From an uncultured bacterium (GTDB taxonomy: Bacteria > Auribacterota > Erginobacteria > Erginobacterales > CAZKCI01), in assembly GCA_964551475.1 (NCBI GenBank), contig CAZKCI010000023.1, positions 7,289 through 71,288 on the forward strand: a DNA stretch of 64,000 nt. Reading direction: 5' to 3'. The notes beneath the pieces are model-generated. The model worked only from the letters and a program-made list of their open reading frames with translations. It was not told the origin of the DNA and made no database searches. The translations under genes were made by a program, and so were the position numbers. The first letter of the stretch is position 1; each line of letters begins with the position of its first letter. This document shows, in pieces, positions 5,462 through 58,740 of the stretch.

Positions 5462-5575
5462 TGGGTCAGGAGATTGGTCTGGTCTAGGGGTCAGGTTGAT
5501 GGTGCCGGCCGACCTTTGACCTTGCCCATCGACCAAACCACTATCCTTACCCTAACCCATCAACCAGATCCACAT
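5462..5575. repeat. Intergenic imperfect-palindromic repeat element, family A (GGGTYAGG / CCTTACCC units), copy 1
   Basis: gggtcaggagattggtctggtctaggggtcaggttgatggtg...caccatcaacc-like complement ccttaccctaacccatcaacc; homologous copies at ~12310, 38172, 54003, 58607 and a partial copy at 19688. Confidence 0.75.
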
Positions 5576-5601
5576 TGTATATAGCACACTGCGACGCTCT
5601 G

Positions 5602-6558
5602 CTACGAGTGTCGGATTTGATCCTCGACCTCCCGCACGAACCTCCCCGCCACCTCCGGCCAGGTGAGCGTCTCCTGGCGGGCGAGGGCGGCGGAGAGGGA
5701 GGCGCGCAGGGCGGGATCGGCGATCAGGCGGACGATCCCCGACCGCAGGTCGTCGGTGATCAGCGCCTCCTCCCCGTCTTTCAGGGTGCCGGAGACGCGA
5801 CCGGCGAGAGCGACGATCGGCCGCCGGGCGCGGATGTATTCGACCATCTTGACACAGCTGTCGTTGTCCATGGTCAAGACGGCGATGTCGAAAGCCTTGA
5901 TATAGGCGGCGACCTCCCGGGGAGGGACCTCGCCCAGGAAATGCGCGTTGCGGGGAGCGTTCCGGACGAGTTCATCCTCCGCCGGTCCGATCAGATAGAG
6001 TTCGCAGGGAAGCCCCCGCACCGCCTCGATCAGGCGGTCGACCCTTTTCGCCCGGTTGACGATCCCGACATAGCCGACGCGCGACGTCCCCGGAAGGTTT
6101 TTCGGCACAGCGGCGTCGAAATCCTCTTCCACGCCATGGGGGATGAAGACGGCCTTCCTGGACCAGCTTCGGGCTCTTTGAATCCGGGACACGCTGGGTG
6201 ACGAGACCAGGTCCGCCCCTCCCACAGCGATCCTCTCCAACCCCGAGACCAGGCGGCGGCCGTAAAGGCGACCCATGTTTTCGGCGTAATCGTCGATCCA
6301 GTCATGGACCAGATACGACCGGAGAAGGGACCAACGCCGCAAGAGGGCGGGGAGAAATCCGATCGCGCCGGCGGCCACCACCACCCGCGGGCGGAAACGG
6401 ACGAGCGCGGGAATAAAATCCCTCCAGCGCTCGCGGGAGAGGTGGATAACCTCCCAGCCCCGGCCGGCGAGGAGGGGCGGCAGGCGGTGCCAGCGGCGGG
6501 GAGTGGCGCCGGGGCGCATGTGGGTGAGGATCAGGACTCTGAAAGGTTCAAGGTTCAT
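5602..6558 (-). CDS. Glycosyltransferase, GT4/GT1-like (Glycos_transf_1 C-terminal domain)
   Basis: N-terminus FRVLILTH, C-terminal Rossmann-like half; the start codon lies inside a GGTTCA heptamer repeat. Confidence 0.6.
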   Translation of the reverse strand: MNLEPFRVLILTHMRPGATPRRWHRLPPLLAGRGWEVIHLSRERWRDFIPALVRFRPRVVVAAGAIGFLPALLRRWSLLRSYLVHDWIDDYAENMGRLYGRRLVSGLERIAVGGADLVSSPSVSRIQRARSWSRKAVFIPHGVEEDFDAAVPKNLPGTSRVGYVGIVNRAKRVDRLIEAVRGLPCELYLIGPAEDELVRNAPRNAHFLGEVPPREVAAYIKAFDIAVLTMDNDSCVKMVEYIRARRPIVALAGRVSGTLKDGEEALITDDLRSGIVRLIADPALRASLSAALARQETLTWPEVAGRFVREVEDQIRHS

Positions 6559-6665
6559 GGTTCAACGGTTCAAAGGTTGGCTGAAAATGGGATTTGAGAT
6601 TTGAGATTATAGATCTGAGATCCGAGATTTGAGATTAACAGATCTCGGCTGATTACCGATTACCG
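6545..6665. repeat. Tandem heptamer arrays: GGTTCAN x4-5 followed by GAGATTT/GATTTGA units and CTGATTACCGATTACC
   Basis: ggttcaaggttcatggttcaacggttcaaaggtt ... gggatttgagatttgagattatagatctgagatccgagatttgagattaacagatctcggctgattaccgattaccgg; related arrays at 18838, 32060 (GGTTCA type) and 56270 (GAGATT/CTGATTA type). Confidence 0.75.
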
Positions 6666-7717: not shown

Positions 7718-9222
7718 GAGATCAAGAGGCCGAGCTTTTTCAGATCCGCGATTCGCGATCGAAAATCGGAGATCCTCGGGACGGGTCGGGGGAGAGAATC
7801 CGCCAGCACCCTCCCCGACTCCTCTCCCTCCCCATCCATCGCCGGCAGACGGAAGAGAATCCCGGCGCAGAGCCAGAAGAGAAAGTTGATCGGGAACATC
7901 ATCTCCCAGACATTGAGGGCGAAGGCGATGATGCCGTAGGCGGCCAGGATGGTGAACAAGGCCGAGGCCGTCTCCCGGATGCGGGGATCCCGGGCGGCTT
8001 TCATCACCCGCCAGGCCTGCCGGAAGATGGTCCCGAGAAGGCCGGCAAAGATACCGGTGCCGACCAGGCCGTACTGGATCAGGAGAAGAAAATAGCTGTT
8101 GTCCACAATATTTTCGATGATAAAGGCGGAATCCGGCTGAAGGATGCCGCCGAACTTCCCGTAGCCCACGCCGAAGAGAGGAGAGGGCCGGATTTCATTG
8201 GCGACTTCCCTCCAGTTCTTCGTCCTCCCCTCCCGCTGGGTGGGGTCGCTGAGCTTTTTCTGCAGCCAGGTGATGCGTCCGTAGTAGAGCGGGGTGACCG
8301 CCATGACGTTCAGGGCCACCACGCCGACGAAGACGATCAGGATGGTCTTGCGCATGGTCGCGGCCCGATTGAAGAGCAGGATCAGGGCCACGGCGGCGAT
8401 CAGGGCCAAGAGGGCGCTGATGGAGTAAGCGAAGAGGAAGGGGAGAATGAGGAGGATCACGGGCAGGGCGGGGAAAGGCGGCGGACGGACGGAGAGACCG
8501 GAGAGGTAGCGGTTGAGCAGGATGATCATGGCGGAGAGGAGCACGTCGGCGAAGGTGTTCGGGTTCCCGTAGGTGGAGCTGATCCTCCGGAAGGACTCCT
8601 CCCCCAGGACCACGATCTTCTCGTCCACGTAACGCCCGGTCGCTTTCTGGACCAGACCCAGGACGGCGGTGACCAGGGCGATGGCCACAAGATTTTTCAT
8701 AAAGGAGTACACGGTCTCCTTCTTCTCGAAGTAGGCCTGGGCCAGCCAGAAGACGGTGAAAAACTCCGCGGTCTTGCGGAAGCCGAGCAGACCCACGGAA
8801 AGGCCTCCGCCCCGGAAGATGGTGAAAAAAGTGTAGGCGAAGAAGGTGAGGGACAGGATATTGTGCGCGCCCCAGGTCCAGGCGCCGAAGATCCCCTTCC
8901 CCCTCCGGACCACCCCCCGGATGAAAACATACAGCCAGAGGAAGAGGAGAAGGATGTCCTTCAAGGAGTTCAGAGCTAAGATCTGCCGCCCCTCGGCGGC
9001 GAACTGATAGATGCTGACGGAGAAGGTGATCCACATGTAGGCGTTGATCAGGTTTTCCGATGAGTAGGCCATGACGACGAAAAATCCGCCGATCATGAGA
9101 ACGGAGACGAACAAGACCACGTCCCCCCTCAGAATGGCGGAGGTGACCATGACCAGGATGACCAGCATCAGGAGGATGGAGGCGAGCGATCGGGTGGAGG
9201 AGGCTCTCGCGATGGTCTTCAT
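7714..9222 (-). CDS. O-antigen ligase / Wzy-like polysaccharide polymerase family membrane protein
   Basis: ~12 predicted TM helices; Wzy_C-like motif ...DNSYFLLLIQYGLVGTGIFAGLL; 4-nt overlap with the GT9 gene. Confidence 0.65.
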   Translation of the reverse strand: MKTIARASSTRSLASILLMLVILVMVTSAILRGDVVLFVSVLMIGGFFVVMAYSSENLINAYMWITFSVSIYQFAAEGRQILALNSLKDILLLFLWLYVFIRGVVRRGKGIFGAWTWGAHNILSLTFFAYTFFTIFRGGGLSVGLLGFRKTAEFFTVFWLAQAYFEKKETVYSFMKNLVAIALVTAVLGLVQKATGRYVDEKIVVLGEESFRRISSTYGNPNTFADVLLSAMIILLNRYLSGLSVRPPPFPALPVILLILPFLFAYSISALLALIAAVALILLFNRAATMRKTILIVFVGVVALNVMAVTPLYYGRITWLQKKLSDPTQREGRTKNWREVANEIRPSPLFGVGYGKFGGILQPDSAFIIENIVDNSYFLLLIQYGLVGTGIFAGLLGTIFRQAWRVMKAARDPRIRETASALFTILAAYGIIAFALNVWEMMFPINFLFWLCAGILFRLPAMDGEGEESGRVLADSLPRPVPRISDFRSRIADLKKLGLLIS

Positions 9223-11373: not shown

Positions 11374-12306
11374 TCAATCCTCCCAAACAATAATCTCCCG
11401 CTCCAACTCAATCCCGAACTTCTCCCTCACCCTCGCTCGGGCCAGATCGATCAGGCTCCGCACATCGCCGGATCGGGCTTGCCCCAGATTGACGATCCAG
11501 TTGGCGTGCTTCTCCGAGATACGGGCGGATCCCCGCCTCTCTCCCTTCAGACCGGCTGCCTCGACCAGGCGGCCGGCGGAGTCGCCCGGGGGGTTCTTGA
11601 AGATGGACCCGGCGGAGGGCCATTGCAGGGGGAACTTCCGTTTCCTCTCCTCTCCGATCTCCCGCAGGCGCTCCCGCACGGCCGCGGGATCGGCCGGCTC
11701 CAGGAGACAGGCGATTTCCAGCACCGCCTCCTCCCCTCTCCGGAAACGGGAGCCGCGATAGACGAAATCGCACCCGCTCGCGGGGAACTCCCTGATCCCC
11801 GCTCCGGGACGGTAGGCCCTGATCCAGCGCACGATCCCCGCCATGTCGCGGCCGAGCGACCCGGCATTGGTCGCCGCCGCGCCGCCCGCCGTCCCGGGGA
11901 TGAAAGCGGCGAACTCCAGGCCGCTTAAACCCCGCTCCGCCGCCGAACGGGCCAGAAGCGGAAGAGGCGCGCCGGCGGAGGCGATCAGAGTATTCCCCTC
12001 GAATCGGAAGGAACCCATTTTCGATCCCATCCGCAGCACCGCCCCCGATACGCCCCGGTCGGCGACCAGCAGGTTCGATCCTCCGCCCAGAACGCGCCAG
12101 TCGATCCCCTCCCCCGCGAGGAGGTCGAGGGCCGCGCACAGCTCCTTTTCCGACCCCGGCTCGACCAGCAGCTCGGCCGCTCCGCCGATGGCGAAGGTGG
12201 TCAGGGGGGCGAGGGGAGCGGAGACAACCGGCGGACAGACCCCGCCCAGAAGGGCGATCGCCCGAGATAAATCCGGTTTGGGAGAGAGAGGCCTGGGACT
12301 CTTCAC
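11374..12306 (-). CDS. murB: UDP-N-acetylenolpyruvoylglucosamine reductase (MurB)
   Basis: FAD-binding TFAIGGAAELLVEP, GGGSNLL, C-terminal IFKNPPGDSAGRLVEAAGLKG...SEKHANWIVN characteristic of MurB; GTG start. Confidence 0.85.
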   Translation of the reverse strand: MKSPRPLSPKPDLSRAIALLGGVCPPVVSAPLAPLTTFAIGGAAELLVEPGSEKELCAALDLLAGEGIDWRVLGGGSNLLVADRGVSGAVLRMGSKMGSFRFEGNTLIASAGAPLPLLARSAAERGLSGLEFAAFIPGTAGGAAATNAGSLGRDMAGIVRWIRAYRPGAGIREFPASGCDFVYRGSRFRRGEEAVLEIACLLEPADPAAVRERLREIGEERKRKFPLQWPSAGSIFKNPPGDSAGRLVEAAGLKGERRGSARISEKHANWIVNLGQARSGDVRSLIDLARARVREKFGIELEREIIVWED

Positions 12307-12309
12307 AAT

Positions 12310-12432
12310 ATAGGTCGATAGGTTAGGGAGAAGAAGCGGGTCTGGTCGATGGGTTAGGGTCAGGTGATGACTCGCCCAGCCGCACCATTAACCCGACCCA
12401 TTTACTAGACCCACTTCTTAACCCAACTCCCC
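12310..12432. repeat. Family A palindromic intergenic repeat, copy 2
   Basis: aggtcgataggttagggagaagaagcgggtctggtcgatgggttagggtcaggtg ... caccattaacccgacccatttactagacccacttcttaacccaactcc. Confidence 0.75.
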
Positions 12433-12433
12433 T

Positions 12434-13726
12434 TTACTGTCTTTCGACTTTCCCCCCCAGGGCGCGGATCTTCCCCGGCAAGTCCGCGTAGCCGCGCTCG
12501 ATCTGATAGACGTTCAGAATCCGCGATTTTCCGGACGCCGCCAGGGCGGCGAGGAGCAGGGCGGCGCCGCCCCGGATATCGCCGGCGCGGACGGACGCCC
12601 CCCTGAGCTTCCTTTCCCCCGTTATCCGGGCGATCAGGCCGGGGCGCCCGTTGACACAGAGAAAACCGCCGTTGTCGACGCTCACCTCCGCCCCGAAACG
12701 GTTCAGCTCCGGAACATAGGCGAAACGGTTGTCGAGAATCGTCTCCCGGATCGAAGACTCGCCGCGGGCGCGCGCCATCAGGGCGCAGAAGGCGGGCTGG
12801 TTGTCGGTATGGAATCCGGGGTAGGCGGCGGTGACGACCGGCCGCCCCCGGAGAGGGCCGGGCGCGGATACGGAGACCCCGTCCCCTTCCCGCCTCAGAA
12901 CGACGCCCGCCCCGGCGAGCGTCTCCGCCTCGGCGGCGATCAGGGAAAGTCCGCCGCCCCGGACGAAGACCTCCCCGCCGGTGATCGCCCCCGCGCAGAT
13001 CAGCGTGAAGAGCTCGATCCGGTCGTCCATCACGCGGTGGCGCGCGCCGTGGAGTTTTTTCCTGCCTTCCACCGCGAGCGTCCGCGTCCCCTTTCCCGTC
13101 ACCTTCGCCCCCATGGCGATGAGGCAGGAGACCGCGTCGTCGACCTCCGGGTTGACGGCGGCGTTCTTGAGGACGGTCCTTCCCCGGGCCAGCGAGGCAG
13201 CAAAGAGAAGGTTCAGTGTCCCCGAGAAACTGGGGTAGGGAAAATGAAATTCCGTCCCGGAGAGGCCGCCCGCCCGCGCGCGGATGCGGTTGGGGAGAAG
13301 CTCGATCGTCGCCCCCATCCGCTTCAAGCCTTCCAGATGGTAATCGAAACGGCGATCGCCGATCGGACAGCCGGCGGGAAAGGATATCTCCGCCTCTCCA
13401 AAGCGGGCGAGCAGGGGACCCAGGGCGAGGAGCGAGTGGCGGGTCCGGTTTTGAAAGGACCTCGGGATCACGGTCGTCTTCAAGGTTCCGGCGCGGACGG
13501 TCAACCGCGTCGACTCCCGCCGGATCGAGACGCCGAGAAGCTTCAGAAAAAGGCCCAGGTCGAGCGTGTCCTCGAGCCGCGGGACGTTCTCCAGGATCAT
13601 CGCCTCGTCGGTCAGAAGCGACGCCGCGAGCAGGGGGAGGGCGGCGTTCTTCGCCCCCTGGAGGGAGACTTCGCCCCGCAGGGGGATTCCCCCCTCGACC
13701 AAATAGCATTTCTCAGGAACGTTCAA
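12434..13726 (-). CDS. murA: UDP-N-acetylglucosamine 1-carboxyvinyltransferase (MurA)
   Basis: LRGEVSLQGAKNAALPLLAASLL, ...HLEGLKRMGA..., C-terminal YVPELNRFGAEVSV...IERGYADLPGKIRALGG colinear with E. coli MurA; TTG start. Confidence 0.9.
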   Translation of the reverse strand: MNVPEKCYLVEGGIPLRGEVSLQGAKNAALPLLAASLLTDEAMILENVPRLEDTLDLGLFLKLLGVSIRRESTRLTVRAGTLKTTVIPRSFQNRTRHSLLALGPLLARFGEAEISFPAGCPIGDRRFDYHLEGLKRMGATIELLPNRIRARAGGLSGTEFHFPYPSFSGTLNLLFAASLARGRTVLKNAAVNPEVDDAVSCLIAMGAKVTGKGTRTLAVEGRKKLHGARHRVMDDRIELFTLICAGAITGGEVFVRGGGLSLIAAEAETLAGAGVVLRREGDGVSVSAPGPLRGRPVVTAAYPGFHTDNQPAFCALMARARGESSIRETILDNRFAYVPELNRFGAEVSVDNGGFLCVNGRPGLIARITGERKLRGASVRAGDIRGGAALLLAALAASGKSRILNVYQIERGYADLPGKIRALGGKVERQ

Positions 13727-14945
13727 TCCTCTGCTCCTCGATCGAGCGGATGAACTCTAGCATCCTCTCCGCCTGCTTCTCCCAGCTCTCCTCCTCGGCG
13801 ATCGCGCGGCGCCGGAGCGCCCGGGAAGGGTCCCTTTCCCCGAGGGCCTCGGCGATCGCGGCGGAAAACTCCTCGTTCCCGGCAGCGAGACGGATCCAGG
13901 GCATAAGCCGCCGGAAATGCGGGAGGTCGACGGCGACCACCGGCTTTCCGGTCGCCAGGTACTCGTGCATTTTAAGCGTGGTCAGGTTCGCGGTGTAGTC
14001 GTTTTTCCGGTAAGGGATGGCGAGCACGGAGCAGTGCTTGAGATAGCGGGGGACTTCCTCCCGCGGCCGGACGCCCAGGTAATGGAGGTTGGGCAGGCGG
14101 GGCAGACGCCCGGCGGAGGTTCCGTCGGAAACCCCCGTCCCGCCGATCAGGACCCAGTGCCAGCCGGGTCGGGAAGCGGCCACCGCCCGGATCAGTTCGA
14201 AATCGACCTTGTAGGCGTCCAGCGCCCCCACGTAGCCGATCCGGGGAACGGGGATATCCCGCAGGCCATCCGGGATCGGGATATCGGAATCTATCACCCG
14301 GGCATAGAGGGCGGCGTCCACGCCGAGGCGGACGAGGCGGGTGTCGGGGTTGACCGCCGCCTTGCGTTCGGCGATCGAGGGAGAGGTGCAGAAGACGACG
14401 GAGGCGGCGCGCAGCAGCCTCTCCTCCTCCCGGACGAGGCGGGAGCGGCCCGCGCCGAGCCAGGGGAAGGTCGAGACCTCTCCATCGCATTTGTAGACGA
14501 GGATTTTCCTCCGCAGGCCCTCGGCCAGGCGAAAATGGCGGGGCGAGATGACCCAGGTCTGGTAATCGCCGAAGCCGAGGCGGGAGAGGGCGGCGCGGAC
14601 CCGGGCCGCGAGAAAAGGCCGGGCGAGCCGGTCGGCCGCGCCAAAGCGGGAGCTGAAGGGGACGGGGCTCAGCGGCCGCAGGACGCTGAGCGTGTCGCTT
14701 TGCCGGTCCGTTTCTTCCCGGCGCCTTCTCCCGCGCCAGGCGCGGGGGCCGAGGGGCGGATCGACGACGAGAACGCGGGCGAGGCGGGAGAGGGCGAGCG
14801 CGATCTGCTGGGAGGAGGTCCAGACCGGGTCCTCCCAGGACCGGGTGGCGAAGTAGAGGATCTCGGCTCGCGGTGCGGGAGCGGTCATATCCATAGTATC
14901 GACCGCCGGACGGAGAGTGTCAACGATGGGGGATGGTCGGGCCAA
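13713..14945 (-). CDS. Glycosyltransferase family 4 (TuaH-like)
   Basis: IGYVGALDAYKVDFELI...WVLIGG...LAIPYRKNDYTANLTTLKMHEYLATGKPVVAVD; start uncertain (internal Met at residue 18/20). Confidence 0.75.
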   Translation of the reverse strand: MARPSPIVDTLRPAVDTMDMTAPAPRAEILYFATRSWEDPVWTSSQQIALALSRLARVLVVDPPLGPRAWRGRRRREETDRQSDTLSVLRPLSPVPFSSRFGAADRLARPFLAARVRAALSRLGFGDYQTWVISPRHFRLAEGLRRKILVYKCDGEVSTFPWLGAGRSRLVREEERLLRAASVVFCTSPSIAERKAAVNPDTRLVRLGVDAALYARVIDSDIPIPDGLRDIPVPRIGYVGALDAYKVDFELIRAVAASRPGWHWVLIGGTGVSDGTSAGRLPRLPNLHYLGVRPREEVPRYLKHCSVLAIPYRKNDYTANLTTLKMHEYLATGKPVVAVDLPHFRRLMPWIRLAAGNEEFSAAIAEALGERDPSRALRRRAIAEEESWEKQAERMLEFIRSIEEQRIERS

Positions 14946-14957
14946 AGGACGGAAGAG

Positions 14958-15062
14958 CTGGAGTACTGAAGTATCGGAGTAATGGAGTATTGGAGTAATG
15001 GAGTAGTGGGGAAAGCTCCGCCTGCGCAGCCCATTACTCCATCACTCCATTACTCCAACACC
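14958..15062. repeat. Heptamer-hairpin repeat, family B (GGAGTAATGGAGTAYTGGAGTAATGGAGTAGTG ... inverted CATTACTCCATCACTCCATTACTCCAACAC), copy 1
   Basis: Tandem TGGAGTA/GGAGTAA heptamers, a short loop, then their reverse complements; homologous copies at 49596 and 52863. Confidence 0.8.
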
Positions 15063-17861: not shown

Positions 17862-18080
17862 AAATCCGAAATACGAATATCGAAATCCGAAACAAACCGA
17901 AAAATTCGAAATTCCGAAACAATGGACAAAAAGATGTCTTCCTCTCTTACGCTGGTTTTGGTCCTGTCACTGGCGGTTTCGAATTTCGGTCATTCGGATT
18001 TGTTTCGGATTTCGATATTCGAGTTTCGAATTTGCCCCGTTGTTACGGATTTCGTTTCCCGATATTCGGATTTTTTCAGC
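17862..18080. repeat. AT-rich island with long imperfect inverted repeat (CGAATATCGAAATCCGAAACAAA ... TTTGTTTCGGATTTCGATATTCG) and multiple TTCGGATTT/CGAAATC heptamer-like units; MITE-like or operator array
   Basis: The 23-nt core of arm 17872-17900 is exactly reverse-complementary to 17997-18022; ~95-nt spacer; extra motif copies 18040-18075; GC content far below surroundings; right arm overlaps the 3' end of the methyltransferase gene. Confidence 0.75.
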
Positions 18081-18837: not shown

Positions 18838-18928
18838 GGGTTCAGCGGTTCACGGTTCAGGGGTTCACGGTTATTTATGATTTTTCCCAACCGCTGAACC
18901 CTTGAACCGTGGAACCTTTTAACCTAAT
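18838..18928. repeat. GGTTCA-heptamer inverted repeat, family C, copy 2
   Basis: gggttcagcggttcacggttcaggggttcacggtt ... aaccgctgaacccttgaaccgtggaacc (reverse-complementary arms). Confidence 0.75.
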
Positions 18929-18974
18929 CCAAGTATATCAGCAGCCAGAAGAACGTGGCATAAGGATAGGGCGG

Positions 18975-19727
18975 ATGAGCCTGCGGAAACGAGCATCCAG
19001 TGTGCTGAAAAATCCCCGGTCTCTCCTCTCGACCCTCCGCGCCCGCCTCGATCCCTTGCGCTACTGGGGGCCGCAGGGCTACCGCGCCGGACGCTACTGG
19101 TCGGATCGCCTCGCCCGCTTCCGTTCCGACCTCCGGGGAGTGGGAAACGCCTCGCTCACCTCCGCCGAGAACGAAAAGCTCCACCGGGAGGGGGCGCAGG
19201 TCTTCCTCTCCCTCTGCCGGGGAGAGGGGATCGACTTCCCCCGGGCCCGCCTCCTCGACATCGGCTGCGGGACCGGCTACTACGCCTCCCTCTTTCGGGA
19301 GGGCGGTGGGAAAAGTTATCTCGGCGCCGACATCACCTCTGTCCTCTTCCCCGATCTCCGGAGCCGCTTCCCCGGTTTTTCCTTCCGCCGGATCGATGTC
19401 TCCCGGGAGCGCCTGGAGGGCGCTTTCGATCTCGTCATCATGATCGACGTCGCACAGCACATCACCTCTCCCGAGGGGTTCGCCTTCGCGATGAAAAACG
19501 TCCGGGAAAGCCTGGCGCCGGGCGGGCGCTTCATCGTCACCTCCTGGCTCGATCGCAACGCCCGCAGGTCCTTCTACGAGATCGCGCGGGGAGAAGAGGA
19601 TTACCGGGCGGCCTTCCCCGGCTGGCGGATGAGCGCACCCCTCCCCTTCCGCGACAAGAAGATATTCTCCCTCAGGCCCCCTAACCAAGGGTCGATGGGT
19701 AAGGGTAAGGAAGACGATTCGAAATGA
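18975..19727 (+). CDS. Class I SAM-dependent methyltransferase
   Basis: LLDIGCGTGYY motif I, FDLVIMIDV, LAPGGRFIV; start placed at second ATG (18975, preceded by aggatagggcgg) because the first ATG at 18909 lies inside the repeat. Confidence 0.65.
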   Translation: MSLRKRASSVLKNPRSLLSTLRARLDPLRYWGPQGYRAGRYWSDRLARFRSDLRGVGNASLTSAENEKLHREGAQVFLSLCRGEGIDFPRARLLDIGCGTGYYASLFREGGGKSYLGADITSVLFPDLRSRFPGFSFRRIDVSRERLEGAFDLVIMIDVAQHITSPEGFAFAMKNVRESLAPGGRFIVTSWLDRNARRSFYEIARGEEDYRAAFPGWRMSAPLPFRDKKIFSLRPPNQGSMGKGKEDDSK

Positions 19728-22184: not shown

Positions 22185-22210
22185 ACGGCGTGGCCGGATC
22201 AACAACGGGG

Positions 22211-43816: not shown

Positions 43817-44108
43817 AAATCACCTGCCGGTTTTCCAAAATCTCCTTTCTGCGAAAGGGATTCCGCAATCCGGATTTTTCCACCAGATCTACATCCCGTC
43901 CGAAAATCTCCCGAAGCTCTTCGATCATCTCCACCCATTCGAACAGGCTCCAGGGGGCATCCGCCGCCAAACTGATCATGACATCGACATCGCTGTCCGG
44001 TCGGAACTCGTCCCGCAATATCGAGCCGAAAAGGGACAACTCGACGATTTTCCATTTCCGGCAGAAATCGGCGATTTTGATCGTATCTATTTTGATTTTT
44101 GGATTCAT
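43806..44108 (-). CDS. mntA: MntA-like minimal nucleotidyltransferase antitoxin
   Basis: FGSILRDEFRPDSDVDV (GSx9-13DxD NTase motif), 100 aa; 11-nt overlap with hepT; a hairpin cgttcggt-aaaacaa-ccgaacaac lies just upstream of its start (44116-44140). Confidence 0.75.
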   Translation of the reverse strand: MNPKIKIDTIKIADFCRKWKIVELSLFGSILRDEFRPDSDVDVMISLAADAPWSLFEWVEMIEELREIFGRDVDLVEKSGLRNPFRRKEILENRQVIYAA

Positions 44109-44319: not shown

Positions 44320-44510
44320 GCCATCCGCGATTATTCGCGCGTTATTCGCGGTTAATTTTTAGCCGGGCAGTCTCGGATCGCGGCGAGACAGATTCTTCTA
44401 GTCCATCGTGGGAGGGGCGTCTCGCCCCGATCCAGAGAGGCCGGCCCGGATCGCGGCAGGAATGCCGCTCCCACAGGTTCGGTGTCGCACCCAGAGGGCG
44501 TTCCCACAGT
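44320..44510. repeat. Composite repeat block: ATTCGCG units (cgcgattattcgcgcgttattcgcggttaatt) + family D hairpin (copy 2) + extra D half-site
   Basis: Lies in a 475-nt noncoding gap; gtgggaggggcgtctcgccccgatcc...ggatcgcggcaggaatgccgctcccaca then gggcgttcccacag. Confidence 0.7.
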
Positions 44511-48707: not shown

Positions 48708-48728
48708 CTGCAGCCCCCGGTCTGACTA

Positions 48729-48795
48729 TTGTGGGAGGGGCATTCTTGCCCCGATCCAGGCCGACCCGGATCGCGACAGGAATGTCGCTCCCACA
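48729..48795. repeat. Family D hairpin repeat, copy 3
   Basis: tgtgggaggggcattcttgccccgatccaggccgacccggatcgcgacaggaatgtcgctcccaca. Confidence 0.75.
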
Positions 48796-48834
48796 GAAGG
48801 GCAAGACAAGACACGCGCCACGGCGTTTGGATCA

Positions 48835-49563: not shown

Positions 49564-49595
49564 GGCGGGACAGATGTGTTGGAGCGACACAGAAA

Positions 49596-49715
49596 CGGAG
49601 TACTGGAGTACTGGAGTAATGGAGTGTTGAAAAGACTCCGGCTTCGCTTCCCATTACTCCAATGCTCCATCACTCCATTGTTTTGTTTCATTTCATCACT
49701 CCACCACTCCCTTAC
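49596..49715. repeat. Family B heptamer-hairpin repeat, copy 2
   Basis: ggagtactggagtactggagtaatggagtgttg ... cccattactccaatgctccatcactccattg ... cactccaccactcccttactcc. Confidence 0.8.
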
Positions 49716-51657: not shown

Positions 51658-51694
51658 TCAGCAAACAACGATCAGTTACTGCTCACTGCTATTC

Positions 51695-51861
51695 CGTGGG
51701 AGCGACATTCTTGTCGCGATCCGGGCGAGTGGGGATCGCGGCAGGAATGCCGCTCCCACAGATGGCCTGGAGAGCGCGTTAGAATACTCCCGCAGCTATT
51801 CGCGAGAATTCGCGGTTAATTCTTGGGCCGGGCCGGATCGGGGCGAGACGCCCCTCCCACA
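51695..51861. repeat. Family D hairpin repeat copy 4 (perfect hairpin) + ATTCGCG units + reverse-oriented D half-site
   Basis: gtgggagcgacattcttgtcgcgatcc-gggcgagtgg-ggatcgcggcaggaatgccgctcccaca; ctattcgcgagaattcgcggttaatt; ggatcggggcgagacgcccctcccaca. Confidence 0.75.
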
Positions 51862-51866
51862 AAAAG

Positions 51867-52847
51867 CTAAAGACGAACGGTCCCCTTATCGTAGTTGGCC
51901 GCGAACCAGCCGACGGTCTTCTGGAGGCCGTCCCGGAGAGAGGTGGGGCAATCGAGGCCGAGGGCTCTGAGCTTCTCGTTGGAGAAGATCTTGAAGAGCT
52001 TACCGTCCGGCTTCGCTGTGTTCCAGGCGATCCGCCCCGTATAGCCGGTGAGTTCCCGGGTCATCTCCGCCAGATCCCGGATGGAGGTGGATTGACCGGT
52101 GGAAAGGTTGATCGGCTCCGGCAAGTCGTAGTTTTCCAGGAAGTAGGGGAAGAGGGCGGCGACGTCGGCGGCGTAGACGAAGTCGCGGGTCGGTTTCCCG
52201 CTCCCCCACATCGTCACTTCCGGACTCCCCGCGCGCTTCGCTTCGAAAAACTTGCGGATGGTGGCGGGGATGACGTGAGCGTCGCGCAGGCTGAAGTTGT
52301 CGTATTCGCCGTAGACGTTCCCGGGGATCAAAACGACGGCGCGGAACCCGTATTGGCGGCGGTAGGCCTCCGACTGGATGATCGCCATCTTCTTCGCCGT
52401 CGAATAGGGGGCGCTTTCGAGAGTCGGGAGCCCTTCCCACATCTGGTTCTCGGAGATTGGCGAGGAAGCCGCGGCCGGATAGCTGCAACCGCCCATGACG
52501 TTGACGATCCTTTTCGCCCCCGCCTTCCAAGCCTCATGCAGGGTGAGCGTGATCATCATCAGGTTGCGGTAATAGAAGTCGGCCGGAAATTCCAGGTTCG
52601 CCCCGATCCCGCCGACATAGCCGGCCAGGGCCACCACCCAGTCGGGGCGGTGGTCCCGGAGCATCTGGCGCGCGGAGGCCTGATCGGTGAGGTCGTAGTC
52701 CTTCGCGGAGACGCCGATCACCGCCCCTTTCCCGTAGCGGGCAGAGAGGACCGGGACAACATGGCGGCCGAGAAAACCCGAGGCGCCGGTGACGAGGATC
52801 CGCGACGGTCGGTCGGGGGGGACGGACGTGGAACGGTCAGAGGTCAT
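51867..52847 (-). CDS. GDP-L-fucose synthase-like (GDP-4-keto-6-deoxy-mannose 3,5-epimerase/4-reductase, Fcl/WcaG family)
   Basis: RILVTGASGFLG, DYDLTD, ...SAPYSTAKKM (YxxxK); start at ATG 52847; the listed ORF begins 5 codons upstream at a GTG. Confidence 0.7.
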   Translation of the reverse strand: MTSDRSTSVPPDRPSRILVTGASGFLGRHVVPVLSARYGKGAVIGVSAKDYDLTDQASARQMLRDHRPDWVVALAGYVGGIGANLEFPADFYYRNLMMITLTLHEAWKAGAKRIVNVMGGCSYPAAASSPISENQMWEGLPTLESAPYSTAKKMAIIQSEAYRRQYGFRAVVLIPGNVYGEYDNFSLRDAHVIPATIRKFFEAKRAGSPEVTMWGSGKPTRDFVYAADVAALFPYFLENYDLPEPINLSTGQSTSIRDLAEMTRELTGYTGRIAWNTAKPDGKLFKIFSNEKLRALGLDCPTSLRDGLQKTVGWFAANYDKGTVRL

Positions 52848-52862
52848 AGGGAAGAGCCACAC

Positions 52863-53010
52863 TGGAGTAATGGAGTGTTGGAGTAAATGAGCACAGGAGT
52901 AATGGAGTGTTGGAGTAATGGAGTACTGGAAAACATGGCCTCGCGGCCCATTACTCCACTACTCCATTACTCCACATTGTTCCCTACTCCATTACTCCAA
53001 TTCTGCATCA
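52863..53010. repeat. Family B heptamer-hairpin repeat, copy 3
   Basis: ctggagtaatggagtgttggagtaaatgagcacaggagtaatggagtgttggagtaatggagtactgg ... cccattactccactactccattactccacattg...ctactccattactccaattc. Confidence 0.8.
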
Positions 53011-53019
53011 CTCCGATTT

Positions 53020-53964
53020 TCATAGGTTATCGTGGATCGAGTGTTTGAGGAAGGTATAGGCCCGGATCAGCTCCGCGATCCCCCAGTCCAGGTCGTGGCG
53101 GGTCCGAAAGCCGGCCTTCTCGATCTTCTCGTTGGAGACGATGTAGTTCCTCTGGTCGGGGTCCTTGCCCACCTCGGAGGTGATGATCACGAGCCGGGGG
53201 AGATGGCGCTTGATCGTCTGGCAGAGCTCGAGCTTGGAGAGGTTGGCCGAGGAAAGGCCGACGTTGTAGACCTCGTCCTTCATCCGGGAGAAATTCTCCA
53301 GGCCGAAGGCGAAGGCGCGGGCGATGTCCCGGACATGGATATAGTTCCGCTTGAAGTGGGCCTCGAAGAGAACGATCACCCGATCGACGAAGGCCCGGTA
53401 GGTGAAGTCGTTGACCAGGAGGTCGATCCGCATCCGGGGGGAAACCCCGAAGGCGGTGGCCAGGCGGAAGGCGATGGCGTTGCCGCTCCCCATCAGCACC
53501 CTCTCCGCCTCCACCTTCTGGCGGCCGTAGGAGGAGATCGGGCGGAGCGGAGACTCTTCGGTGCAGAAGGCCCCGGCCTCGCCCACTCCGTAGCCGGAGT
53601 TGGTCACCGGGAAGAGGACGCGCTGGGCGCGGGAGCGCAGCCGGTCGATCAGCTTCACCCCCCCCACGTTGATCGACCGCGCCTCCTGGGGATGGCGGTC
53701 GCAGGCGGGGGCGCCGACCACGGCGGCGAGCGGGATGATCACGTCGGCTTCCTTGATGAGGGGCCGGACCACGGAGGGCTCCCGGACGTCTCCCCGGACG
53801 ATGCGCAGCGTCTGGTGATGGCAGAGGTGCAGGAGGGAGGTCTGGCGGTAGCGGAAATCGTCGAGAACGGTGACCGAATATCCGTTGTCCAGAAAATGCC
53901 CGGCCATCACCGAACCGACGTATCCCGCCCCGCCGGTAATTAATATTTTGCATGATTTCATGGT
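53020..53964 (-). CDS. NAD-dependent epimerase/dehydratase (extended SDR)
   Basis: (M)KSCKILITGGAGYVGS, ...SSYGRQKVEAE (YxxxK); start at internal ATG. Confidence 0.75.
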   Translation of the reverse strand, partial: TMKSCKILITGGAGYVGSVMAGHFLDNGYSVTVLDDFRYRQTSLLHLCHHQTLRIVRGDVREPSVVRPLIKEADVIIPLAAVVGAPACDRHPQEARSINVGGVKLIDRLRSRAQRVLFPVTNSGYGVGEAGAFCTEESPLRPISSYGRQKVEAERVLMGSGNAIAFRLATAFGVSPRMRIDLLVNDFTYRAFVDRVIVLFEAHFKRNYIHVRDIARAFAFGLENFSRMKDEVYNVGLSSANLSKLELCQTIKRHLPRLVIITSEVGKDPDQRNYIVSNEKIEKAGFRTRHDLDWGIAELIRAYTFLKHSIHDNL

Positions 53965-54002
53965 TTTCTCCGCGCGGTAATGCAAACGGGCGAGCGAGTA
54001 TA

Positions 54003-54127
54003 TGGGTTAGGGTTATGAAGTGGGTTTGGCAGATGGGTCAGGTTAATGGTGTTGGCCTCGGCGAGCCGCACCATCAACTTCTCCCATGTACCAAACCAAC
54101 TTCTTGACCCTTACCCATCGACCCAAA
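54003..54127. repeat. Family A palindromic repeat, copy 4
   Basis: tgggttagggttatgaagtgggtttggcagatgggtcaggttaatggtg ... caccatcaacttctcccatgtaccaaaccaacttcttgacccttacccatcgacc. Confidence 0.8.
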
Positions 54128-54151
54128 CAGTGTTCCAGGGAAAGATAGCCG

Positions 54152-55090
54152 TTATCTCAGAATAGCGTTTGCTGTTTCCCCGACCAGATGGTCCCTGAGG
54201 ATCTTCAGCCCTTCCGAGAGCTTCACCCGGGGAGCGAAGCCGTAGAGCTTCTTCATCGCCGTGGGGCGGGGACGGAAGGAGATGTATTCCGGCACCTTCC
54301 CCACGCAGCGGATCCGCGCCTTGACCCCGAACGTCCGCGCCGCCTCTTCCACCAGGGCGCGCAGCGTGTAGGGCCGGCCGACACAGAGATCCACGGTGAT
54401 ATACCTTCCCCGGGACGCGAGCATCATTTTCACCGCCTCCACCGTGTCGGAAACGAACATGGCGTCGATCAGGTTCTTCCCGTCGCCCCGGATGACGAAC
54501 TCCCGCTCCTTCTCCAGGGCGAAGGTCCGGACCAGCTTGGTGTAGATCTTCCGGGGCGGCTCCTGCGGGCCGTAGGCGCCGAAGAAACGGACAATCACAT
54601 AATCCCGAACCGATCCCTGTTTCTGGAAGAACTTGACGTAGCCTTCGGAGGCGAGCTTGGCGATGGCATAGGGGAGTCTCGGATCGAGACGGCTCGAGGG
54701 CGAGACCAGACCGGAGAGGCCGTCGTAGACCGCCCCCGAAGAGAAGTAGATCAGGCGGCCGATTCGAAAATGCGAGAGAAACCGGATCAGGGCCAAGGGC
54801 CCGTCGGACAGGTCCCTCCCCGGATTCTCGACCGAAAAGGCGGGATCCCCGTTCCCGGCGAGATAGACCGCGGCATCCGCCTTCCCGTCCCAGCGGCGGG
54901 CGAGTCGGGAGAGCGCCGCGCTGTCCTGGAGATCGCAGGACACGGCGTCCACGCCCGAAAGCCCCCGCTCCCGGACGAAAGCAGCCGCTGCCGGCGTCCG
55001 GTCGAGAGCCAGGACCTGGTGACGTTCCGCCAGAGAAAGCAGGAGGTTCTTGCCGATGAATCCCCCCGCGCCGGCGATAATGATCTTCAT
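54152..55090 (-). CDS. NAD-dependent epimerase/dehydratase (SDR)
   Basis: (M)KIIIAGAGGFIGKNL, ...PYAIAKLASE (YxxxK). Confidence 0.7.
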   Translation of the reverse strand: MKIIIAGAGGFIGKNLLLSLAERHQVLALDRTPAAAAFVRERGLSGVDAVSCDLQDSAALSRLARRWDGKADAAVYLAGNGDPAFSVENPGRDLSDGPLALIRFLSHFRIGRLIYFSSGAVYDGLSGLVSPSSRLDPRLPYAIAKLASEGYVKFFQKQGSVRDYVIVRFFGAYGPQEPPRKIYTKLVRTFALEKEREFVIRGDGKNLIDAMFVSDTVEAVKMMLASRGRYITVDLCVGRPYTLRALVEEAARTFGVKARIRCVGKVPEYISFRPRPTAMKKLYGFAPRVKLSEGLKILRDHLVGETANAILR

Positions 55091-55223
55091 GGGAACAAAC
55101 TCCAAAATACAAACCACAAATTCCAAACAAAATTCAAATCACAACTTACCATCACCGATGAGCCGGTTTGTTTGTGATTTGGCTTTGTAATTTGTTTGGA
55201 ATTTGTTCTTTGTGGGTTGTTAT

Positions 55224-56180
55224 TTATTCTTTCCAGTACTCTCGGTACCACGCAATCGTCTTTTCGAGCCCTTCCGAGAGAGGGACCCGCGGAACGAAGC
55301 CGAGGAGACGGCGGGCTTTCTCAATGGAGGGGATCCGGAGTTCCACGTCGGCGGCCAGGGCGTCCTTGAAAACCAATTTCGAGGAGGACCCCGAGATGCC
55401 GATGATCTTCTCGGCCAGGTCGCGGATGGTCACGGCGGCAGCATGGTTCCCGAGGTTGAAGACCTCGCCCACCGCCTTGGGTTTTTCCAGGCAGGCGAGC
55501 ACGCCGCGGACGAAGTCGTCGATATAGCACCAGGCCCGGATCTGCGCCCCGTCTCCGTGGATAAAGAGGGGCTCGTTCTTGAGCGCCGCCAGCGTGAACT
55601 TCTGGATCGCCCCCTCCCCCACCTGGTAGGGGCCATAGATGTTGAAGGGGCGAACGGTGACCGCGGGCAGGCCGTACTCCTGGTGGTAGCAGTGGGTCAT
55701 GTGCTCGGCGGCGAGCTTGGAGACGGCATAGACCCACCGCAGAACGCCTACCCGGCCGTGCGTGGTGGGGGCGGCCTCGTCCGCCTTGTAGACGAAAGAG
55801 CCGTAGACCTCGCTGGTGGAAAAGTCTACGAAGCGCTCGACCTTCTCCTTCACCGCCGCGACCAGGACGTTCTGGGTTCCGGTCATGTTCACGGCCATGG
55901 TCACGGTCGGGCGCTTGATCACGGTGTCGATCCCGGCGATGGCGGCGAGGTGGACGACCAGGTCGCACCCCTTGATCGCTTTCCTTACCCCTTGGGGGTC
56001 GAGGACGTCCCCCTTGATGAACTTGATGTGGGGATGACGGGGGAGATCGGTCAGGTGGATGGCGTCCCGGTGCTGGTTGTCGTAGACGACCAGACGGTTC
56101 AAATCCGCCAGCGCCCGGCAGAGGTGGGTCCCGATGAACCCCCCTCCCCCGGTGAGCAGTATCTTCTTGTTCTTGATCAT
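55224..56180 (-). CDS. NAD-dependent epimerase/dehydratase (extended SDR; UDP-sugar 4-epimerase/decarboxylase-like)
   Basis: (M)IKNKKILLTGGGGFIGTHL, ...VYAVSKLAAE (YxxxK). Confidence 0.75.
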   Translation of the reverse strand: MIKNKKILLTGGGGFIGTHLCRALADLNRLVVYDNQHRDAIHLTDLPRHPHIKFIKGDVLDPQGVRKAIKGCDLVVHLAAIAGIDTVIKRPTVTMAVNMTGTQNVLVAAVKEKVERFVDFSTSEVYGSFVYKADEAAPTTHGRVGVLRWVYAVSKLAAEHMTHCYHQEYGLPAVTVRPFNIYGPYQVGEGAIQKFTLAALKNEPLFIHGDGAQIRAWCYIDDFVRGVLACLEKPKAVGEVFNLGNHAAAVTIRDLAEKIIGISGSSSKLVFKDALAADVELRIPSIEKARRLLGFVPRVPLSEGLEKTIAWYREYWKE

Positions 56181-56269: not shown

Positions 56270-56370
56270 GAGATTAGAGATTACCGATTACTGTTCACCG
56301 ATCGCCGCTCCTTGATCTGAAATCTGAGATTTTAGATACTGATAACTGATCGCTGATTACTGATCACTGT
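56270..56370. repeat. Heptamer array GAGATTA/CTGATTA/TGATCAC (family G)
   Basis: gagattagagattaccgattactg...tctgaaatctgagattttagatactgataactgatcgctgattactgatcactg; related to 6585-6665, 2525-2568, 51661-51690. Confidence 0.7.
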
Positions 56371-58592
56371 TTTTCTACGGGGGCGAGGCGGAGGTTGGTG
56401 ATCACCGGATAGGCCTTGTTCCGGGGGATCCCCCCGCGCGAGTAGAACATCGTCTCGCCGAAGGTCTTGTCGGTCCAGGGGCCGCGCTCGTAGTAGATCC
56501 AGTTCCCGATCGGCCAGGAGGCGCCGACGAAATAGCGCCCCCGGGGGGCGGCGAAGGTCCAGGAAGACCAGTCGCCGGGATTCTTCACGGCGAAGAGGGG
56601 CGACTCGGCGACTTTCCCGTCGGGCACGCCATCCCCGTCCGCATCGGCGAAGACGGCGAGCCGGATACTTCCCTCGTCGCCCTCCCGGGCGTGGGCCATC
56701 TCCAGTTTCAGCTCTGTCCCCTCCGGCCATCCGTTCGCCACCTCCCAGACGCCGACGTCGAAGTAGCCGGCATGCTCGACGGAGTCGGTGAGCAGGTCGC
56801 CGGAAAAAGCAGGAGAGACGACGGCCGTTTCTTTCCCACCCGTCGCCGGCGAGTCCGCCTTCCCCTTGACCGCCTTGATCTCGACCAGCCAGGACTCGAA
56901 ATGCTGCGGCTCCATTCTCTCGTCCCAGACCACGGGGGCGTTGGCCCGGCGGGGGAGGCGCTTCCCCGCCCAGTCGACGATGTCGTCGGCGAGCAGGGGA
57001 ATGATGTCCGCGTGCTCCTTATGGATGATCTCGACGTCGTAGAGGCGGCCCATATAGCGCTTTTCCGTCTCCAGGTTGGTGTGCCATCCGTGGAGCATGA
57101 CCAGGTCCCCCACCTTGAGATTCCCCCGGGTGGAGTTGGTGTAGCCGCGCAAGGGGCGGGGCTTGGCGAAGAAGCCCGCTTTCAGCGTCTCGTCCGTGTA
57201 GAGAGACCTTCCGGGAAAACGGTCGCGGACATAGAGGGAAAGGCGGGAGATGTCGGCGAAGGAATCTCTCTGGTAGACCAGGACCAAACCCGTGAAGACC
57301 GAGGAGGCGAGAAGGCAGAGGACGAGCGAAGCTATGCCCAGCCAACGGATCTTCCGGGTGGCATAGATAGCGTCGATGCCGACGCCTCCCAGGATCAGGC
57401 CCGCCGGGACAAGCTCGTACTGATAGCGGGGCGTCCACCACTTGTTGACCACCAGGACGAAGGTGATGGCGGCGAAGAAATAGAGATAGAGAAGGGCGTA
57501 GGAGAGAGCGGCGGAAGATTTCCGGGCGCGGACGATCAGGACGAGGAGACCGGCGAGAGCGAGGAGCGCCACCGGGTAGGTGAGTATCCAGGGATAGGAG
57601 TAGAGGTAGTGGACGAGCCAGTCCATCCCCCGGGTCTGGATCGACTGCCAGGAGACCTTCATCCCCTCCCCATACCAGTTGCTCTTGGCCAGGTATTTCT
57701 GCCAGACGTGGAGAAAGACGAAGGCGGAGAAGGAGACGACCATGAGGAGGAGGACGAGGGGCCTCATCCACCAGCGGGGAGAAATGTTTTTCCGGGGAAA
57801 GAGGTAGAAGAGACCGAGGAGAGCCCCCATCAAAGCTAGGGCGGCGAGCCCATATTGACGCAGGAGGATCGGGCCGGGGATTTTGACGGGGAAAACAGCG
57901 AGGACCTGATCGATCACCGGCTGGAGCATTTCCTTCAGGCCGGGGAGATAGAAGAAGGCGACGGCCAGCAGGGCGAGGGCAAGGGGGAAAACGATCAGCG
58001 CGGTCTTGACCTTCCTCTCCCGGAAGAGCGCGGCGATGAGGAAAACGGCGGCGGCGGCGGCGGCGGGCGGGACCAGGACGAGTCCGGTGGGATAGGTGAG
58101 CGCGGCGAGCCCCCCGGAGAATATCCCCAGGGCGAGGAAAAGGCTGTTGCCGGTCGGCAAGCACTTGAGAATACCGTAGAAGCAGAGGAGAACGAAAAGC
58201 GCGTACTGGGCGTGGGGAAAGATCCTCAGCGACCAGCGGAAGACCAGGGGGGAGACGGTGTAGAGGGCGGCGGAGAAGATCGCGGCTCTTTTTCCCGAGA
58301 CAATCCGGGCGATCCCCATCAGGGGGAGGACGGAGAGAGCCCCGGCAAGGATCGAGACGAGCCTTCCCGAGACCAGGGAATCTCCGACCAGGCGGTTGAG
58401 CAGGCGCAGGAAAAAGGGATAGCCGGGGAGGATGAACGTCCCCTGTATCCGCTCCAGCGCCGTCATGTAGTAGACCGAGTCGGTATAGACGGCGGGATGC
58501 CAGAAGAGGAAGGCGAGGCGCAAGACAAGGTTCAGAAGAAAGAACCCCGTTAGCCACTTCCAGATCTTCCCCACATTATCGAGATTATTCAC
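56364..58592 (-). CDS. GT-C (ArnT/PMT_2-like) membrane glycosyltransferase with conserved C-terminal ~120-aa module
   Basis: ~13 TMs; C-terminal ...RLAVFADADGDGVPDGKV...NPGDWSSWTFAAPRGRYFVGASWP...TMFYSRGG...PVITNLRLAPVEKQ. Confidence 0.65.
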   Translation of the reverse strand: MNNLDNVGKIWKWLTGFFLLNLVLRLAFLFWHPAVYTDSVYYMTALERIQGTFILPGYPFFLRLLNRLVGDSLVSGRLVSILAGALSVLPLMGIARIVSGKRAAIFSAALYTVSPLVFRWSLRIFPHAQYALFVLLCFYGILKCLPTGNSLFLALGIFSGGLAALTYPTGLVLVPPAAAAAAVFLIAALFRERKVKTALIVFPLALALLAVAFFYLPGLKEMLQPVIDQVLAVFPVKIPGPILLRQYGLAALALMGALLGLFYLFPRKNISPRWWMRPLVLLLMVVSFSAFVFLHVWQKYLAKSNWYGEGMKVSWQSIQTRGMDWLVHYLYSYPWILTYPVALLALAGLLVLIVRARKSSAALSYALLYLYFFAAITFVLVVNKWWTPRYQYELVPAGLILGGVGIDAIYATRKIRWLGIASLVLCLLASSVFTGLVLVYQRDSFADISRLSLYVRDRFPGRSLYTDETLKAGFFAKPRPLRGYTNSTRGNLKVGDLVMLHGWHTNLETEKRYMGRLYDVEIIHKEHADIIPLLADDIVDWAGKRLPRRANAPVVWDERMEPQHFESWLVEIKAVKGKADSPATGGKETAVVSPAFSGDLLTDSVEHAGYFDVGVWEVANGWPEGTELKLEMAHAREGDEGSIRLAVFADADGDGVPDGKVAESPLFAVKNPGDWSSWTFAAPRGRYFVGASWPIGNWIYYERGPWTDKTFGETMFYSRGGIPRNKAYPVITNLRLAPVEKQ

Positions 58593-58606
58593 GGTAGCTA
58601 ATGAAG

Positions 58607-58740
58607 GTAGATAGGTTAGGGTTAAGAGGTGGGTCTGGTAAATGGGTTAGGGTTAGGTGGAGCTCGCAGACCGCGAGCCAGGCTACACCATCAACCTTAC
58701 CCATTCACCAAACCCACTTCTTTACCCTTACCCATCGACT
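58607..58740. repeat. Family A palindromic repeat, copy 5
   Basis: gtagataggttagggttaagaggtgggtctggtaaatgggttagggttaggtgg ... caccatcaaccttacccattcaccaaacccacttctttacccttacccatcgac. Confidence 0.8.

Follow-up and report, generated by a model that had tools for sequence, protein, structure and literature searches.

Whether the palindromic repeats that lie between bacterial genes serve their hosts or simply spread as selfish sequences is an old open question for the ERIC and REP elements, and the two possibilities are hard to separate in model bacteria. The same question is raised by a stretch of 64,000 nucleotides from an uncultured bacterium (contig CAZKCI010000023.1), which we call the window, where a palindromic element designated Family A recurs between genes. 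In this case, three to four related lineages permit a clean test of constraint on resident repeats. Our analyses demonstrate that the dispersal of Family A to intergenic spacers predates the split of the genus into its present species, and that its copies have been held in place since then by position-specific purifying selection. It is a new family within a known kind, the bacterial interspersed intergenic palindromic repeats.

A first-pass annotation of this DNA had listed five copies and one fragment, and all of them are present, as judged both by direct reading and by an nhmmer profile of the arm. The profile recovered the five copies and the fragment (here at 19691-19714) with E values of 1e-5 to 4e-13, and no further Family A arms anywhere in the window. 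The copies, to which no strand is assigned, all lie between co-directional minus-strand genes (five of five), in agreement with the earlier placement between genes of the same operon. Copy 1 (5450-5565) consists of a left arm with a diverged outer part (5463-5505), a loop (5506-5510) and a right arm (5511-5564), and is flanked by minus-strand glycosyltransferase genes (5602-6558 and 4488-5357). Copy 2 (12313-12437; left arm 12314-12366, loop 12367-12381, right arm 12382-12424 with its outer part diverged) occupies the whole spacer from the stop of a minus-strand open reading frame (ORF; 12434-13726) to the start of murB (11374-12306, minus strand). Copy 3 (38173-38229), upstream of era (37218-38108, minus strand), is a deletion derivative in which arm columns 2-37 (38174-38209) survive together with an inner remnant of the opposite arm. 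Copy 4 (53997-54123; arms 53998-54051 and 54068-54122, loop 54052-54067) is flanked by an epimerase gene (54152-55126) and an ORF (53020-53985), both on the minus strand. Copy 5 (58606-58740; arms 58607-58658 and 58686-58739, loop 58659-58685) abuts at one end the TAG stop of a minus-strand ORF (58739-60799), and a PMT_2 gene (56364-58592, minus strand) begins 14 nucleotides past its other end. The fragment, GGTCGATGGGTAAGGGTAAGGAAG, is a solo arm on the plus strand (19690-19713) that matches arm columns 1-24 at 24 of 24 positions. It lies at the junction of two plus-strand genes (18909-19727 and 19724-20752) and encodes the C-terminal tail of the first.

The family would have dissolved had its copies been no more alike than shuffled intergenic sequence, and the outcome favors the family. 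A 28-nucleotide degenerate core, ATRGGTWAGGGNNANGANGNGGGTYTGG, has five exact matches in the window and seven with up to three mismatches, with 0.00 expected from 100 shuffles. Likewise, GGGTWAGGG occurs eight times, compared with 0.97 expected, and all occurrences are inside Family A elements or the fragment (at 19697). The TTAGGG-like core had been called striking for a bacterial genome, but its resemblance to telomere repeats is incidental: no more than two GGGTTA units are ever adjacent, the T/A position is a neutral variable column, and sister families use unrelated units.

In the window together with the loci retrieved from related genomes, there are 33 unique paired elements and about ten more solo arms. 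Family A elements are non-coding imperfect palindromes of 111-145 bp with variable GC-rich loops of 5-38 nucleotides, and three of the 33 carry an insert of 200-300 bp in the loop, one of which includes an element of another repeat family. The arm is rich in G, T and A (consensus GGTCGATGGGTTAGGGTTAGGAAGTGGGTCTGGTAAATGGGTTAGGTTAATGGTGC) and is followed by a short GC-rich spacer and then by its approximate reverse complement, a relationship that had been noted before and that is seen in each copy, with a palindromic consensus in the both-strand alignment. Each arm of about 55 nucleotides is a direct duplication of a 31-nucleotide module with the core GGTnGATGGGTnAGGGTnA. An element thus holds four GGTnGATGGGTnAGGGTnA copies, two direct copies on each arm, and reads as module A1, A2, variable GC-rich loop, A2′ and A1′, each module spanning about 25-31 nucleotides. 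The per-column information has an autocorrelation of 0.84 at offset 31, along with a minor period of about 6.3 nucleotides. Column statistics for 62 arms reveal invariant GG or GGG blocks every 5-8 nucleotides, between which are single highly variable positions (columns 4, 12, 18, 35/36, 43 and 49), the first three mapping onto the last three at offset 31.

All copies can fold into long hairpins, as had been claimed, with z scores of -2.2 to -10 as RNA and of -5.3 and -7.3 as single-stranded DNA. The arm consensus has only three C residues in 56 nucleotides, and lone arms fold with a minimum free energy of 0 kcal/mol. At the variable columns the two arms agree less often than chance and so are usually mismatched, and the predicted hairpin is a series of 5-7-bp G:C-clamped helices split by 1-nucleotide internal loops. 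The loops (60-85% GC) differ between copies, and their self-complementarity does not exceed chance (mean z = -0.22 relative to shuffles, p = 0.23). Arm pairing keeps its register while loop length varies, which speaks for a folded hairpin or cruciform over any fixed arrangement along the DNA duplex.

Family A is confined to a genus-level clade. When the core pattern was searched in one genome per species (185,579 species), there were at least 15 matches, all of them, among the matches listed, in the metagenome-assembled genome (MAG) CAZOYW01. This MAG shares synteny with the window, with a nucleotide identity of 82-87%, and carries its copies on at least 11 contigs. A metagenome scan added at least 25 further stretches, of which some belong to the organism of the MAG (JAEAM*, ERZ1645192) and others to a third related population (Ga0105104). 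There were no matches in viral contigs, plasmids, phages or Escherichia coli genomes. The window has no Rfam match at the gathering threshold, and its sub-threshold matches are of the generic long-hairpin sort (MIR904 with 40 bits of the 80 needed, Y_RNA with 24.6 of 38). The window belongs to a 173-kb metagenome contig from JGI. Its Era protein shares 64% identity with the counterpart in Candidatus Euphemobacter frigidus (Candidatus Auribacterota, PVC group), which places the host among the uncultured bacteria of the PVC group. Family A was not found in relatives at about 65% Era identity. Nothing specific on similar elements in PVC bacteria was found in the literature. As to the genome-wide count of copies proposed earlier, the MAG has at least 20 elements in 112 kb of loci selected by the pattern, and the window has five in its 64 kb.

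How long have the copies been in place? Their mean pairwise identity is 77%, and the most similar non-orthologous pair reaches 88%. Identity within a genome (0.773) is much the same as that between lineages (0.770), copies do not group by genome, and there are no near-identical paralogues among them; hence we see no sign of recent bursts. Copy 4 and its MAG orthologue differ at 12 of about 127 positions (~91% identity; 91.7% when measured on arm columns), whereas identity in the remainder of that spacer, outside the element, is only 65-75%. The era-upstream copy was found in four lineages and is full-length in at least two of the three others; in the third, the contig starts within the element, yet the apical part and one arm are retained. 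The full-length orthologues imply that copy 3 of the window is a derived deletion that has lost about 59 nucleotides of the apical part.

At copy 5, the stop-proximal arm is kept in all three lineages, but in lineages J and G the distal arm, from beyond the start of the loop, has been replaced by sequence from other repeat families. Comparison of window 58593-58738 with L025 4322-4440 and L040 7482-7660 reveals that J and G share one arm along with unrelated sequence built of CGCGAAT units. Since G is nearer to the window than J is, yet shares the state of J, an arm must have been lost in parallel or regained. Two spacers differ by presence or absence: the window lacks, at 63191-63243, an element that L040 carries, and in L037 another family (8710-8864) stands where L032 has Family A (1250-1394). 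Both spacers are otherwise non-homologous, so that no clean empty site or target duplication can be defined. A search for target-site duplications at arm boundaries gave repeats of at least three nucleotides in none of 23 elements and 2-nucleotide repeats in four of 23, which is near chance, although the copies are old and duplications may have decayed. The original spread would have been the work of a trans-acting enzyme that leaves no target duplication.

The orthologous copies allow constraint to be measured directly. In eight orthologous arm pairs, we classed columns by their conservation or variability across the family. Only 11 of 274 sites in conserved columns differ between orthologues (4.0%), as opposed to 35 of 133 sites in variable columns (26.3%). 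Four-fold degenerate sites of the flanking genes are 68-75% identical between lineages, that is, 25-32% diverged. Divergence at the variable columns is therefore indistinguishable from that of silent sites, whereas at the conserved columns it is far below the silent rate (p about 4e-25). Thus, in each of the two arms, about two thirds of the positions evolve roughly sevenfold more slowly than silent sites. The GG and GGG blocks and their partners remain constant, and one position per 6-8-nucleotide unit, mostly unpaired, drifts neutrally. Gene conversion was rejected as the cause of this pattern, as it would homogenize every column. Copies that remain at their sites are beyond the reach of selection for transposability. 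The simplest reading is purifying selection at the level of the host.

The positions of the elements are informative with regard to what the host might gain. Among 31 elements, none lies within an ORF, and by our rough gene calls the flanking genes are co-directional for about 19-20, convergent for 4-5 and divergent for two. The gap to the flanking genes is usually 0-20 nucleotides. Several elements contain the upstream stop codon at their end or abut it, and at the two loci checked a Shine-Dalgarno sequence is found within about 20 nucleotides of the opposite end. Relative to transcription, either orientation is seen (XY 6, YX 5). Their neighbors are housekeeping genes, including murB, era, hisF, hprK-ptsH, a NUDIX gene and a response regulator gene. 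Our scans placed neither a sigma-70-like promoter nor a terminator of the hairpin and U-tract type at any element.

Family A works most like ERIC and REP/REPIN elements, and looks most like ERIC. It shares with ERIC (also termed IRU; about 127 bp) its size, its single long imperfect hairpin, its intergenic position in transcribed regions, its occurrence in either orientation and its tens of copies. However, there is no sequence similarity between the two, as no blastn match to Family A was found in 5,426 E. coli genomes, and the arms of Family A are duplicated 31-nucleotide modules with periodic GG blocks. Wilson and Sharp are said to have found in 2006 that ERIC copies are likewise old and conserved. 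In addition, ERIC-type elements have been described with terminal inverted repeats, target duplications and a flanking TA (PMC3184786), whereas Family A shows no target-site duplications.

As in REP, BIME and REPIN elements, Family A forms hairpins in intergenic repeats, which in doublets of REP likewise reach ~100 bp. REPINs also resemble it in vertical persistence, lack of target duplication, and the existence of singlets, deletion derivatives and insertion targets (PMC3116915 for REPINs). A REPIN, however, is made of two short palindromic REPs (unit of 20-40 bp), and the arms of Family A lack self-complementarity. The conserved GTAG/CGTC tag of REPs is also missing from Family A, whose ends read GGT[C/T/A][G/A]AT and where a chance AG at variable columns 4-5 is the sole source of GTAG. 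The roles of REPs in mRNA stability, translation and protein binding nevertheless provide the best functional analogy. REP elements near stop codons also affect translation.

Similarities to miniature inverted-repeat transposable elements (MITEs) such as Correia/NEMIS, RUP and Nezha are a length below 200 bp, the absence of coding sequence, inverted-repeat ends and long stem-loops. Those elements are also often located at gene 3′ ends and co-transcribed. Family A has the general MITE form, with ~55-nucleotide inverted arms around a loop of 5-38 nucleotides, a total of 111-145 bp and no ORF, but it shows no target-site duplication, no identifiable parent insertion sequence in the loci retrieved and no young copies, and it is the whole arm, in situ, that is conserved rather than just the tip. 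The earlier description of the elements as REP/MITE-like thus holds for the broad class of dispersed intergenic hairpin repeats, but strict membership among REP/REPINs or MITEs does not, given the lack of arm self-structure and of a GTAG/CGTC head; target-site duplications were not found either, nor was a partner transposase in the DNA searched.

We lean toward the view that Family A is a hairpin read by a host factor, which modulates expression between cistrons as has been reported for REP and ERIC. Squeezed as it is between a stop codon and the ribosome-binding site that follows, the element most likely works as those do: ERIC is reported to alter mRNA stability when co-transcribed, and REP and ERIC elements affect mRNA stability and RNase processing (PMC3184786). 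The functional form would be the long hairpin, with its short G:C-clamped helices and 1-nucleotide internal loops, formed in polycistronic mRNA or in extruded single-stranded or cruciform DNA. A putative host factor would recognize it by sequence as well as by shape. The element would then punctuate cistrons, as a barrier or processing site that tunes stability, termination or translation of the cistrons upstream and downstream.

Several results weigh against this proposal. No preference for folding of the RNA sense strand was detected (10 of 17 elements, p = 0.35), mismatches compatible with G.U pairing are not biased between strands (45 versus 42), and neither orientation relative to transcription is preferred; a role as RNA is thus not specifically supported. 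The elements also lack U-tract terminators and sigma-70 promoters. Compensatory evolution of the arms was sought and rejected, because complementarity within elements (73.4%) is no higher than between elements (75.1%; permutation p = 0.98), and no arm has its own partner as its closest relative. Of the 19 pairs that RNAalifold retains, almost all are invariant G-C and three show a double change, and the covariation term is -0.23; the paired columns are so close to invariant that they offer no covariation by which to prove pairing. Moreover, truncated, solo and interrupted copies exist, so that individual copies can be lost, and the gene calls behind the locus context are rough. An invariant sequence without compensatory pairs does imply that the sequence itself appears constrained, and this suggests that the modules may be recognized sequence-specifically.

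Such recognition could also occur on DNA. As the main rival, it is possible, if doubtful, that the four modules are binding sites for a host DNA-binding or structure-specific protein, such as a nucleoid, gyrase or IHF-type factor as at REP/BIME elements, or a recombinase acting on an extruded cruciform, in which case the position in operon spacers would reflect only tolerance of insertion. This arrangement would account for a sequence that is invariant beyond the needs of pairing and for the lack of both RNA-strand and orientation bias; the 31-nucleotide module spacing within an arm is about three turns of B-DNA, and the elements fold well as single-stranded DNA. However, with loops that range from 5 to 38 nucleotides the two arms keep no constant phase along the duplex, the elements are pressed against stop codons and ribosome-binding sites within operons, and there is no known candidate protein. 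That they are purely selfish non-autonomous transposons (MITE- or REPIN-like), conserved only as far as a transposase demands, is unlikely. Dispersal in many copies, solo arms, the deletion derivative, nested insertions and the presence/absence differences described above (L040 versus window 63191-63243, L032 versus L037) are all expected of a selfish element, and RAYT genes do occur in relatives. Selection at the level of a transposase, however, cannot impose on resident orthologous copies a divergence of 4% in one class of column and 26% in the other. There are also neither near-identical paralogues nor lineage-specific bursts, no target-site duplications, and no transposase next to any Family A copy. 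In addition, arm pairs in the retrieved loci enclose 300 bp at most, and a tblastn search with a RAYT from a relative found no match in about 400 kb of the three lineages. The RAYTs of more distant relatives are flanked by unrelated REPs rather than by Family A.

The stability of the hairpins and their location downstream of genes might instead indicate transcription terminators, whether intrinsic or independent of a U-tract. The window has no excess of canonical terminators relative to its shuffles (20 versus 16.8 and 22 versus 17.5), and four or five copies do lie between convergent genes. Nevertheless, there is no sense-strand U-run, no match of a terminator scan overlaps an element, and most copies are within apparent operons, from a few to ~20 nucleotides ahead of the next start codon, making termination an improbable function. 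Selection of the GGG tracts for G-quadruplex formation, or a telomere-like role, is less credible still. Each arm does contain four to five invariant GG/GGG tracts separated by variable short loops, but the C-rich partner arm is equally conserved in cis and its hairpin would compete; sister families of the same architecture lack G-tracts, and the elements are internal and inverted instead of forming terminal arrays. Finally, Family A resembles the attC sites between integron gene cassettes, such as the 123-bp Vibrio VCRs, in being an imperfect palindrome of similar length and lineage-specific sequence, with unpaired positions at fixed places and co-directional neighbors. We consider this identity barely worth entertaining, since the polarity of the core motif is reversed: both strands run from 5′ G-rich (GTTRRR-like) to 3′ C-rich (YYYAAC-like), never as 5′-RYYYAAC...GTTRRRY-3′. 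Furthermore, copies are dispersed on at least 11 contigs of the MAG in both orientations, among syntenic housekeeping genes (murB, era, hisF, hprK-ptsH), although intI itself was not searched for.

If the hairpin is indeed read by a host factor, the pattern of constraint is a testable map of what is recognized, namely four modules, GG clamps and obligatory 1-nucleotide internal loops. Repeats of this sort are also of practical concern in that they break metagenome assemblies. Family A marks its genus, having been found in one of 185,579 species genomes among the matches listed, and it flags a little-known candidate phylum in which operon spacers are unusually rich in structured repeats.

Indeed, what is most unusual about the locus is the density of hairpins and the turnover of their families. 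The same genomes hold at least ten other families of hairpins made of tandem units of 6-9 nucleotides, with units that include GGAGTAAT, ACTGATY, CCAAACAA, CGAATTACG, GGTTCAVS, GGTTACTAA and AAATCCGA. Of 17 strong hairpins in the window, 16 are intergenic, though intergenic DNA makes up 9.6% of the sequence, and at least 16 of the 33 spacers longer than 50 nucleotides hold a strong hairpin. Orthologous spacers almost always carry some structured repeat, but its family identity turns over: window and MAG have different families at about three of ten orthologous spacers (for example, window 48708-48834, 49591-49711 and 51658-51866 versus L006 5708-5939, 4745-4951 and 2825-2908). Comparable density and turnover were not found in relatives at 65% Era identity. 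On the basis of this density and turnover, it is tempting, though decidedly speculative, to regard Family A as one member of an undescribed host-maintained system of a PVC-group lineage (possibly Auribacterota-related). Nearly every operon spacer would bear a hairpin of tandem 6-9-nucleotide units, drawn from many families of one architecture, each recognized by its sequence and replaceable by another at the same spacer. Such a system would amount to genome-wide intercistronic punctuation, or to a new mechanism of structure-directed mobilization, and not to ordinary selfish repeats.

Among these families, tandem octamers (GGAGTAAT/GGAGTAYT) form hairpins with a GC-rich loop at 14938-15061, 49567-49711 and 52842-53023 of the window. 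The copy at 52863-53019 is 157 nucleotides long, compared with 86 in the MAG, where both arms have fewer units. A true REP, GTGGGAGCGACATTCCTGTCGCGATCC, which has its own small hairpin, occurs as REPIN-like inverted doublets (22119-22201, 44408-44493, 48730-48803, 51687-51775 and 51826-51860), and in a related genome one such doublet is inserted in the loop of a Family A copy (L031 6697-7004 / L033). Hairpins or arrays of 7-9-nucleotide units that each occupy a single locus are located at 17862-18073, 18839-18924, 39776-39891, 55093-55229, 2520-2573, 6543-6636 and 56300-56369, with the units AAATCCGAAAT, GGTTCAGC, CGAATTACGCGAATT, ACAAACC, AGTGATC, AAGGTTC/GATTTGA and GAGATTT/ACTGATC; several recur in related loci (L006, L008, L013, L014 and L017).

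The RAYT genes of the more distant relatives (Y1_Tnp; L043 5560-6603 and L045 5905-6905) have REP hairpins of their own on both sides. The best RAYT homologue (P0122, 46% identical) belongs to a more distant relative, in which its gene follows hisF and has unrelated REPs on its flanks. In L045 the RAYT gene lies just downstream of hisF, and in the MAG (L008) hisF is flanked instead by two Family A copies, one with a 202-bp insert in its loop. This correspondence is no more than suggestive.

Two further palindromes differ from the tandem-unit hairpins. The sole strong non-intergenic hairpin of the window is a perfect 23-bp palindrome, TTCTTTCCGCGGTGGGAGCGGAG gca CTCCGCTCCCACCGCGGAAAGAA, at 42212-42260 within a YfhO-like coding sequence (40906-43395, minus strand), and it is conserved in the MAG (L007 3299-3343). 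The other is a perfect palindrome of 24-27 bp, (GG)AGGGACGGTGGCAACTTGTCAACT nnnn AGTTGACAAGTTGCCACCGTCCCT, found at unlinked sites (window 3473-3524; L015 6062-6119 and 7838-7893), which has the appearance of an operator-like site or of a repeat family in its own right. Taken as a whole, the window is devoted to the cell envelope and polysaccharides: it encodes several glycosyltransferases (PMT_2 and YfhO) as well as a Wzc-like tyrosine kinase (458-2509), and a HepT/MNT (nucleotidyltransferase) toxin-antitoxin pair is situated amid the glycosyltransferase genes at 43454-44108.

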